Sequence record: PQ790658.1
DNA length: 45,276 nucleotides
Strand: one strand, 5' to 3'
DNA from: Pseudomonas phage Clew-1
Shown here in pieces: positions 5,243 through 6,295 of this stretch; within the stretch, counting starts at the first letter, position 1, and each line of letters begins with the position of its first letter. Under the pieces are notes generated by a model, which was not told where the DNA came from, ran no database searches, and was given only the letters and a program-made list of their open reading frames with translations. Position numbers and translations under genes: made by a program.

Positions 5243-5461
5243 ATGACGGAACAGATGCGAGGCCGCCTCCGTGAGGCAATCCGAAAGGACTTAGAGGGCA
5301 TCGGGGGAGATACCTCCGACCTCTACGACAACATACATAAGATAGACGGCCTGCTGGGCCACCCAGGTAAGCCCCCGAATGATTGGGGCTTCTATGTACT
5401 GATGTTTGTCATGTTCATCGCATTGTGCATGGTCTACATCACCCCCCTTCTCTACAAGTAA
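5243..5461 (+). CDS. Hypothetical protein with C-terminal transmembrane helix (72 aa)
   Basis: The start ATG is the ATG inside the GTACTATGAC motif copy at 5239-5247. C-terminal FYVLMFVMFIALCMVYI is a predicted transmembrane helix. Confidence 0.5.
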   Translation: MTEQMRGRLREAIRKDLEGIGGDTSDLYDNIHKIDGLLGHPGKPPNDWGFYVLMFVMFIALCMVYITPLLYK

Positions 5462-5470
5462 GGAATCCCT

Positions 5471-6295
5471 ATTAAGAAAATCCTCGGCCTCCTGGCCATT
5501 GCTGCCCTCGCAATCACCGCAGGTTGCTCCAAGGTTCCCGCTGGCTATACCGGCGTCGTCGTCAACATGATGGGCGACTCCAAGGGCGTCGATCTGAAGG
5601 AAACCCCGGTCGGCTGGAAGTTCCTGACCCCCAACGAGGAGTTGTTCAAGTTCCCCACCTTCAACCAGAACTTCGATCTGGCGGTGGTTACTGCCCAGGA
5701 CAAGGACGGCCTGAAGCTGGACTTCCCCATCGGCGTCACCCTCCGGGCTGCTCCGGGTAGCGCACCCCTGCTGTTCCAGACCTACCGCAAGGGCATGAAC
5801 GAGATCGTAAGCGTGAACGTGCCGCAGGTGGTCCGTAACGCCGTGAACAACGCCAGCAGCAAGAAGTCCGCCGAGGCCATCTATGGTCCGGGCAAGGAAG
5901 CCTTCGTGAAGGAAGTCGAAGCTGCCGTCCGTGAGCACTTCTCCACCCGTGGCATCATCGTCGAAAGCCTGTACCTCAACGGTATGATCGGTCTGCCGGC
6001 GCAGGTGGTCGAGGCTATCAACGCCAAGATCAAGGCCACTCAGACGGCGATGCAGCGTGAGAACGAACTGCGTCAGACCCAAGCCGAGGCAGCCAAGGCT
6101 ATCGCGGCAGCCGAGGGCGAGAAGCAAGCGGCTATCCTGGTGGCCCAAGGTAAGGCCGAAAGCCTCCGCATCCAGGGTGAAGCCCTCCGCCAGAACCCCG
6201 GCGTGGTAGAGCTGAATGCCATCGAGAAGTGGGACGGCAAGCTGCCTACCTACGTCACCGGCGGCCAAGCCATGCCCTTCATCAACGTTCGCTAA
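5471..6295 (+). CDS. SPFH/band-7 (prohibitin/stomatin-like) lipoprotein, apparently starting at ATT
   Basis: The SPFH-like core (GVVVNMMGD, then a long Ala/Gln/Glu coiled-coil C-terminus) begins right after a lipoprotein signal peptide IKKILGLLAIAALAITAGC with a lipobox Cys. Upstream of ATT 5471 the frame is closed by TAA 5459-5461, so no ATG/GTG/TTG start is available. AGGA at 5461-5464 sits 6 nt before ATT. The tracked start ATG 5567 would delete the signal peptide and the start of the domain. Confidence 0.6.
   Translation: MKKILGLLAIAALAITAGCSKVPAGYTGVVVNMMGDSKGVDLKETPVGWKFLTPNEELFKFPTFNQNFDLAVVTAQDKDGLKLDFPIGVTLRAAPGSAPLLFQTYRKGMNEIVSVNVPQVVRNAVNNASSKKSAEAIYGPGKEAFVKEVEAAVREHFSTRGIIVESLYLNGMIGLPAQVVEAINAKIKATQTAMQRENELRQTQAEAAKAIAAAEGEKQAAILVAQGKAESLRIQGEALRQNPGVVELNAIEKWDGKLPTYVTGGQAMPFINVR

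Follow-up and report, generated by a model that had tools for sequence, protein, structure and literature searches.

A private ATT in place of the conserved ATG start codon of an SPFH lipoprotein gene in Pseudomonas phage Clew-1

The closest described counterpart of the gene analysed here is the lipoprotein gene of phages of the PaP4/TL/DL54/Ab22 type (YP_009639004.1 of PaP4; phrog_200). It shares with the Clew-1 gene the position, the length, the Shine–Dalgarno (SD) sequence and the neighbours, and the sequence of the mature protein is identical. Clew-1 differs in that it has ATT for ATG and in that an adjacent ORF of 42 amino acids is frameshifted. The SPFH lipoprotein gene itself is already known: relatives annotate at the same genomic position a CDS of 825 nt which is co-extensive with 5471..6295 and which they label 'lipoprotein', 'SPFH domain-containing protein' or 'HflK family protein'. 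Public records also contain wrong or inconsistent labels for this gene, namely 'transposase fusion protein', 'putative transposase' and 'serine protease'. According to the phage Delta paper, the gene is present in some members of Bruynoghevirus, where its role is unclear, and it is absent from all PaP3 strains, LUZ24, phiIBB-PAA2, phiCHU and Epa2 (PMC8540360).

With HflK/HflC, QmcA, prohibitin, stomatin and erlin the Clew-1 protein has in common the PF01145 domain and, in its predicted structure, an alpha/beta core followed by a long helix. These proteins are scaffolds which form cages or domes. Like HflK/C, the phage protein would, judging from its signal peptide, have its SPFH domain on the non-cytoplasmic face of the inner membrane. 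In contrast to the HflK/C-type scaffolds, to which it is 14-22% identical, the phage protein has a lipobox cysteine as predicted anchor and not an N-terminal transmembrane helix.

The preliminary description of this DNA regarded SPFH proteins as rare in phages. This is not the case, as a tblastn search of 50,697 phage records detected homologues in 658 of them, spread over many genera. They occur in phages of Pseudomonas, Burkholderia, Klebsiella, Escherichia (P1 and Stx phages) and Erwinia and further in Caulobacter phage phiCbK, in Lak megaphages and in Staphylococcus Kayviruses (MbpS). Many of them are annotated as 'lipoprotein' or 'SPFH'. Searching the literature on the function of phage SPFH lipoproteins we found no experimental study but only mentions in genome annotations, one proteome and PM0222. 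In the proteome, which is that of a Vi01-like phage, a related gene product is represented by a few peptides (PMC10892097). PM0222 (Pmorf0222), an SPFH protein of HflK/C type which a prophage of Pasteurella multocida encodes, is reported to be secreted in outer-membrane vesicles (PMC9872710). It is also an accessory SPFH protein borne by a phage or prophage; PM0222 was studied as a bacterial virulence factor and not for a role in phage infection. That a phage SPFH protein acts in superinfection exclusion or envelope remodelling is conjecture.

Initiation at AUU is known from infC and pcnB of Escherichia coli. In both genes the AUU start is conserved and is discriminated by IF3, and in infC it is autoregulatory. 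The AUU of Clew-1 is similar in that it also stands behind an SD sequence at normal spacing. However, whereas the AUU of infC is conserved and autoregulatory, that of Clew-1 has replaced a conserved AUG in this genome alone.

Phage Clew-1 is a LUZ24/PaP4-like podovirus of Pseudomonas aeruginosa. The window, that is, the whole stretch of 45,276 nt which was analysed (PQ790658.1), is a complete Bruynoghevirus genome with 94-98% identity to about 50 GenBank records, none of which is identical to it. Downstream of the locus lies the homologue of LUZ24 gp14 (6516-7478), to which some records give the name 'terminase large subunit family protein'; the real terminase gene is found at 41815-43263 on the minus strand. 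Four clustered tRNA genes (Pro-TGG, Tyr-GTA, Asp-GTC and Asn-GTT) occupy 44174-44502, likewise on the minus strand. The fourth tRNA is Asn by ARAGORN in Clew-1 and tRNA-Ile in the MHN1 annotation. The locus comprises the following features.

4685..4713, plus strand: promoter with a perfect 12/12 match to the sigma-70 consensus (TTGACA-17-TATAAT, extended -10 TG; shuffled sequences give a mean of 0.7 sites)
5243..5461, plus strand: upstream ORF of 72 amino acids with a C-terminal hydrophobic helix (phrog_23984), annotated in relatives, TAA stop at 5459-5461
5268..6410, plus strand: accessory cassette of 1143 nt which holds the SPFH gene, the 42-aa ORF and the greater part of the 72-aa ORF, missing from LUZ24
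5460..5464, plus strand: Shine–Dalgarno sequence AAGGA, overlapping the upstream stop codon, with a six-nt spacer to the start codon, invariant in relatives
5471..5473, plus strand: ATT where relatives have the conserved ATG start, a private G to T change at 5473
5471..5527, plus strand: predicted lipoprotein signal peptide, (M/I)KKILGLLAIAALAITAG followed by C, up to lipobox Cys19 (TGC at 5525-5527); conforms to the lipobox rule as do 108 of 120 homologues
5471..6295, plus strand: SPFH/Band-7 lipoprotein ORF, 274 codons and TAA, identified by Pfam, phrog, the AF2 model and the same 825-nt CDS in relatives
5567..5569, plus strand: first canonical in-frame ATG (residue 33), without SD sequence, by direct reading
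6307..6434, plus strand: conserved basic ORF of 42 amino acids (MGKRKVFYERLCSNGELTLNGNLKATKVSAPTKGKQQRRGTF in relatives) with the strong SD sequence AAGGAGG, frameshifted in Clew-1
6449..6492, plus strand: predicted hairpin with a 17-bp stem and no T-run (-33.2 kcal/mol, z=-4.3), invariant in relatives

We read the sequence from 5200 to 6500 and translated 5243-6295. What the preliminary description states about the TAA, the AGGA, the ATT and the frame is all correct. The TAA at 5459-5461 is followed by GGA ATC CCT, by ATT at 5471-5473 and by AAG AAA. The distance from the stop codon to the ATT is 9 nt, so that the frame is closed only four codons upstream, and AGGA at 5461-5464 lies six nt before the ATT. 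Direct reading reveals no in-frame ATG, GTG or TTG from this TAA to the ATG at 5567. Thus, ATT 5471 is indeed the sole codon in Clew-1 that could start the signal peptide. The earlier description did not include that the upstream 72-aa ORF and the SPFH ORF share one frame. A product starting at ATG 5567 would, from its sequence, be devoid of the membrane anchor and of the first conserved strand KVPAGYTGVVVN (KVPxGxxGV).

The ORF product from 5471 reads (I)KKILGLLAIAALAITAG-C19-SKVPAGYTG.... Its residues 21-204 match Pfam PF01145 (Band_7/SPFH) with 77.5 bits at a cut-off of 23.6 bits, the whole protein matches phrog_200 'lipoprotein' (E=1.2e-75), and a profile search of the PDB retrieved prohibitin-1/2 and HflC. 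In the AF2 model (pLDDT 80.7) an SPFH alpha/beta core is followed by one helix of 65 residues (177-241). When this model is submitted to Foldseek, prohibitin, HflK/C, erlin, stomatin and QmcA are at the top (E 1e-10 to 1e-13, probability 1.00); the alignments span 250-300 columns at 14-22% identity, with 15-19% for the HflK/C chains. A Band_7 profile score above threshold and, in the predicted structure, the alpha/beta fold with a long coiled-coil-forming helix place the protein in the SPFH superfamily. It does not belong to HflK/HflC proper: an NCBIfam scan gave no match at E≤1e-3 and hence no HflK/HflC equivalog, there is a single gene, and a lipobox takes the place of the transmembrane helix. 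The annotation 'HflK family' in U47 is a label at the superfamily level only. The PADLOC-DB defence models gave no match to the protein.

Bacterial lipoproteins of the Lgt/LspA pathway can be recognised with a rule of the PROSITE PS51257 type, [LIVMFWSTAG](2)-[LIVMFYSTAGCQ]-[AGS]-C after six uncharged residues, where the cysteine is at position 15-35 and a K or R is among the first seven residues. The Clew-1 protein conforms to this rule with AIAALAITAGC, Cys19, K2 and K3. We also inspected 120 homologues from a database of 5.8 billion proteins. All of them begin with M and 108 conform to the rule; the other 12 mostly have an uncleaved hydrophobic anchor without the lipobox cysteine, and two have cysteine-containing signal peptides which narrowly miss the rule. 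Since such a large part of the homologues conforms to the same rule, a frame extended by chance does not account for the signal peptide. The assignment of the protein as SPFH/prohibitin-like, with the signal peptide of a lipoprotein and a long helix at the C-terminus, is supported. The residues after the cysteine are S-K-V, for which the +3/+4 sorting rule of P. aeruginosa gives no clear assignment to the inner or the outer membrane.

The 12 distinct alleles of the ORF differ at 68 nucleotide sites, of which 64 are third codon positions. No more than three residues vary, M1I in Clew-1 and two within the hydrophobic signal-peptide core, and the mature protein is invariant. This pattern indicates that the protein is under strong purifying selection and, from the same constraint, that the gene is functional in the relatives.

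We then compared the start codon with that of homologues, a check which the preliminary description had proposed. In an alignment of the start region with four relatives all four have ATG, and every other base from the SD sequence to the start is invariant. Of the 51 phage records which hold the region, 50 match a query of 47-48 nt with ATG at 100% identity, whereas the ATT version of Clew-1 as query is identical in none of the phage records. ATG is also present in all 12 fetched loci containing the flanking motif as well as in NV1, a Vicosavirus and thus a member of a different genus (68% protein identity), where it stands behind GAAGGAA. A search for the ATT allele in IMG/VR gave three matches, all with ATG, and one in JGI metagenome contigs and GTDB genome contigs gave no matches at all. 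As relatives, fetched loci and NV1 carry ATG, the ATT is a private G to T change at position 5473 of a conserved ATG. The sequence comparison shows ATG to be the ancestral and otherwise universal state of the SPFH start and ATT to be unique to Clew-1.

The 51st record, HSN4, has ATC at the position of the start codon. In this copy of the cassette (vB_PaS-HSN4, LC648443.1, 980-2161) the TAA is changed to CAA, so that the frame runs on upstream into the end of the region of the 72-aa ORF; private substitutions are numerous, indels occur and the C-terminus is frameshifted. The annotated CDS is extended upstream to 999 nt and begins at an in-frame GTG about 50 nt upstream. Judging from its sequence the copy is either a heavily decayed cassette or of low sequence quality. 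In view of the private substitutions, the indels and the frameshifted C-terminus we rejected HSN4 as a second example of a start other than ATG.

The SPFH gene is part of the accessory cassette. LUZ24 has neither an alignment nor a tblastn match to 5268-6410 of Clew-1 and instead runs from gp13 directly to gp14. Upstream of the cassette is the promoter at 4685-4713, whose equivalents are annotated in U47 and LUZ24 and which, by its match to the consensus, probably drives transcription of the early-region block by the host RNA polymerase. The hairpin at 6449-6492 is placed between the cassette and the ribosome binding site of the next gene and may be an element for RNA stability or processing or a factor-binding element; an Rfam scan of 4600-6700 gave no matches. 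No NfeD or FtsH partner is evident within the cassette. In NV1 the ORF immediately upstream of the SPFH gene (gp10) is unrelated to the 72-aa ORF of Clew-1, and since this neighbour, the only one which we compared, is unrelated, there is no sign of an obligate partner such as NfeD. The 42-aa ORF downstream has suffered a private deletion of 1 nt, an A, between 6328 and 6329 in Clew-1, which reduces the product to 16 amino acids. This ORF is intact in 11 of 11 fetched relatives. The stretch around 6328/6329 is identical in 0 of 50 matching records, and among the matches listed all eight align 62 nt to the 61 nt of Clew-1.

We suggest that the ATT is a real and recent private G to T mutation in a conserved accessory SPFH lipoprotein gene of the PaP4/TL-type Bruynogheviruses and that the allele is a strong hypomorph or near-null, a reading which we consider moderately probable. 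For the narrower question, that is, whether position 5473 carries a real mutation rather than an error, a mutation appears fairly probable. The following steps can be envisaged. A single transversion at 5473 would have turned the AUG start into AUU in the sequenced stock, and this very recently, as the rest of the ORF is unchanged. The SD sequence, the spacing, the signal peptide and the mature protein are intact in Clew-1. The initiator tRNA could still pair with AUU behind the good SD sequence, 9 nt past the upstream stop, and initiation might proceed at about 1-2% of the efficiency of AUG. In reporters AUU reaches about 1-2% of AUG (range 0.02-3%), figures which hold for E. coli and not for P. 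aeruginosa (bioRxiv 10.1101/063800). It is because of this low efficiency that we regard the allele as a strong hypomorph or near-null. Any protein made from the AUU would be a normal prolipoprotein, while a product from ATG 5567 would be anchorless and presumably useless. Together the ATT and the frameshift of the 42-aa ORF would amount to the inactivation of a dispensable cassette which LUZ24 and PaP3 do not have. As these two phages are without it, the SPFH gene is dispensable for lytic growth. Given the purifying selection in the relatives, a null allele is unlikely to survive for long in nature.

The wild-type protein, as suggested by its fold and anchor, would be exported across the inner membrane as an SPFH protomer which is lipid-anchored at Cys19. 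Its assembly is probably a ring or dome which is apposed to the membrane and faces the periplasm, by analogy with HflK/C, QmcA, prohibitin and stomatin; the structural matches named above, erlin included, all build such rings or domes at membranes. In infection it might stabilise the envelope, modulate a protease or exclude other phages.

The strongest alternative is an error of sequencing or assembly. In this case the true phage would have ATG at 5471-5473 and perhaps also an intact 42-aa ORF, and the consensus would be wrong at one or two bases. The uniqueness of the ATT among 51 records fits such an error, and so does the remainder of the SPFH ORF, which is identical to the relatives at the protein level as it would be in a mis-called functional gene. 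The unchanged amino acids in the body of the ORF do not discriminate between an error and a mutation of very recent date. G to T is moreover a class of change typical of artefacts from oxidative damage.

We therefore compared Clew-1 with six whole relatives and clustered private indels lying within 6 nt of each other across the pairwise alignments. Genome-wide there are three clusters of private indels (around 2406, at 6328/6329 and around 18200), only two of which are changes of 1 nt. The replication, packaging and structural genes are all intact, and the essential genes, about 35 kb in all, contain neither a frameshift nor a stop, which speaks against an error. All three private lesions that disrupt genes are in small or accessory ORFs of the early region. 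Two of the three, the ATT and the deletion at 6328/6329, fall inside the cassette of 1143 nt, which under uniform random placement has a probability of 0.002 for at least two of three, a value resting on three events only; such placement by random errors, with none in the essential genes, would thus be rare. Furthermore, the private transitions of Clew-1 comprise 13 nonsynonymous and 97 synonymous changes and are, as far as this ratio tells, strongly filtered by selection, which also argues against an error-ridden record.

Two of the indel clusters lie outside the cassette. At about 2406-2411 a private insertion of 1 nt changes CC to CCC in a tiny early ORF (2336-2465), which has a TTG start and is 42 amino acids long in MHN1, and gives the second half of its product a different sequence. 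This change of a run length, which could come from slippage or from a homopolymer-type error, is a point in favour of sequencing error. At 18194-18201, in the gene at 17944-18441, there is a private clean in-frame deletion of 12 nt (AGGATCTTAGCC in relatives). The gene is named 'tail length tape measure protein' in relatives, a name which is doubtful for a gene in the early region of a podovirus.

The spectrum of substitutions first appeared to speak for an error as well. The private SNPs of Clew-1 include 72 G:C to T:A changes versus 12 of the reverse class, and 58% of these G:C to T:A changes are nonsynonymous versus 12% of the transitions. Among singletons the share of G:C to T:A is 32% in Clew-1, the highest in the panel, versus 13-21% in the relatives. 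As a control we analysed the relatives' own singletons. They have the same directional bias, and their pooled nonsynonymous fraction is 50% (Fisher p=0.26). An excess of G:C to T:A over T:A to G:C singletons is seen in all Bruynoghevirus genomes examined, about 1.2- to 3-fold in the relatives and 6-fold in Clew-1. Because the control gave the same pattern, the signature is not specific for Clew-1 and we dropped the spectrum as an indication of error or oxidative damage; what is left is a modest excess in number.

A real mutation is favoured over a base-call error because the rest of the genome is clean. The clean genome, the clustering of the lesions and the filtered transitions favour a good assembly and real, tolerated mutations. 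An error is possible but, in our view, less probable.

Another explanation is that the AUU is a functional start under selection, comparable to that of infC and pcnB, through which little of the lipoprotein is made and its amount depends on the IF3 status. The preliminary description had read the AUU in this sense. The AAGGA at optimal spacing, the stop–start distance of 9 nt which favours translational coupling, and the otherwise intact ORF are all compatible with a working start, and AUU is among the four near-cognate codons which initiate measurably. However, a start that evolved in this way should be conserved among orthologues, and the ATT is found in Clew-1 and in no other public sequence. 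The homologues speak against this reading with ATG in 50 of 51 records, in 12 of 12 loci and in NV1, the one exception being the ATC of a degenerate record. In addition the neighbouring 42-aa ORF is frameshifted in the same genome, which indicates loss of function rather than fine-tuning. We therefore consider an AUU start of the infC type quite unlikely. The related proposal that the ATT and the frameshift are both real and selected, in that a turned-down, IF3-sensitive residual expression is advantageous on the isolation host and functional, is unlikely too, if by a shade less so.

Finally, it is very improbable that read-through of the TAA at 5459-5461 fuses the 72-aa membrane protein to the SPFH protein, or that an anchorless product from ATG 5567 alone is functional: the upstream ORF is in the same frame, HSN4 has CAA for this TAA together with an annotated extended CDS, and ATG 5567 is the first canonical start, but HSN4 carries numerous private substitutions and indels besides its frameshifted C-terminus, the stop is TAA, the least leaky of the stop codons, all good records keep this TAA and have ATG 9 nt behind it, so that the two genes are normally separate, and ATG 5567 has no SD sequence and a product from it would lose the KVPxGxxGV strand as well as the N-terminal anchor which is general in the family.

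Returning to the real and recent mutation as the preferred reading, the ATT carries little weight as a curiosity among start codons, as a point change private to one genome which shows no sign of evolved regulation. In annotation, 5471..6295 should be entered as an SPFH lipoprotein gene whose start codon is mutated and which is possibly a pseudogene, and not as an anchorless ORF of 242 amino acids from 5567. If the ATT and the frameshift were selected, Clew-1 would be a natural variant with attenuated expression and a handle on the role of phrog_200 in hundreds of phages. If the changes are real, Clew-1 is a natural knock-down of a three-ORF accessory cassette, and the comparison of Clew-1 with an isogenic phage in which the ATG is restored could reveal the role of this widespread family.
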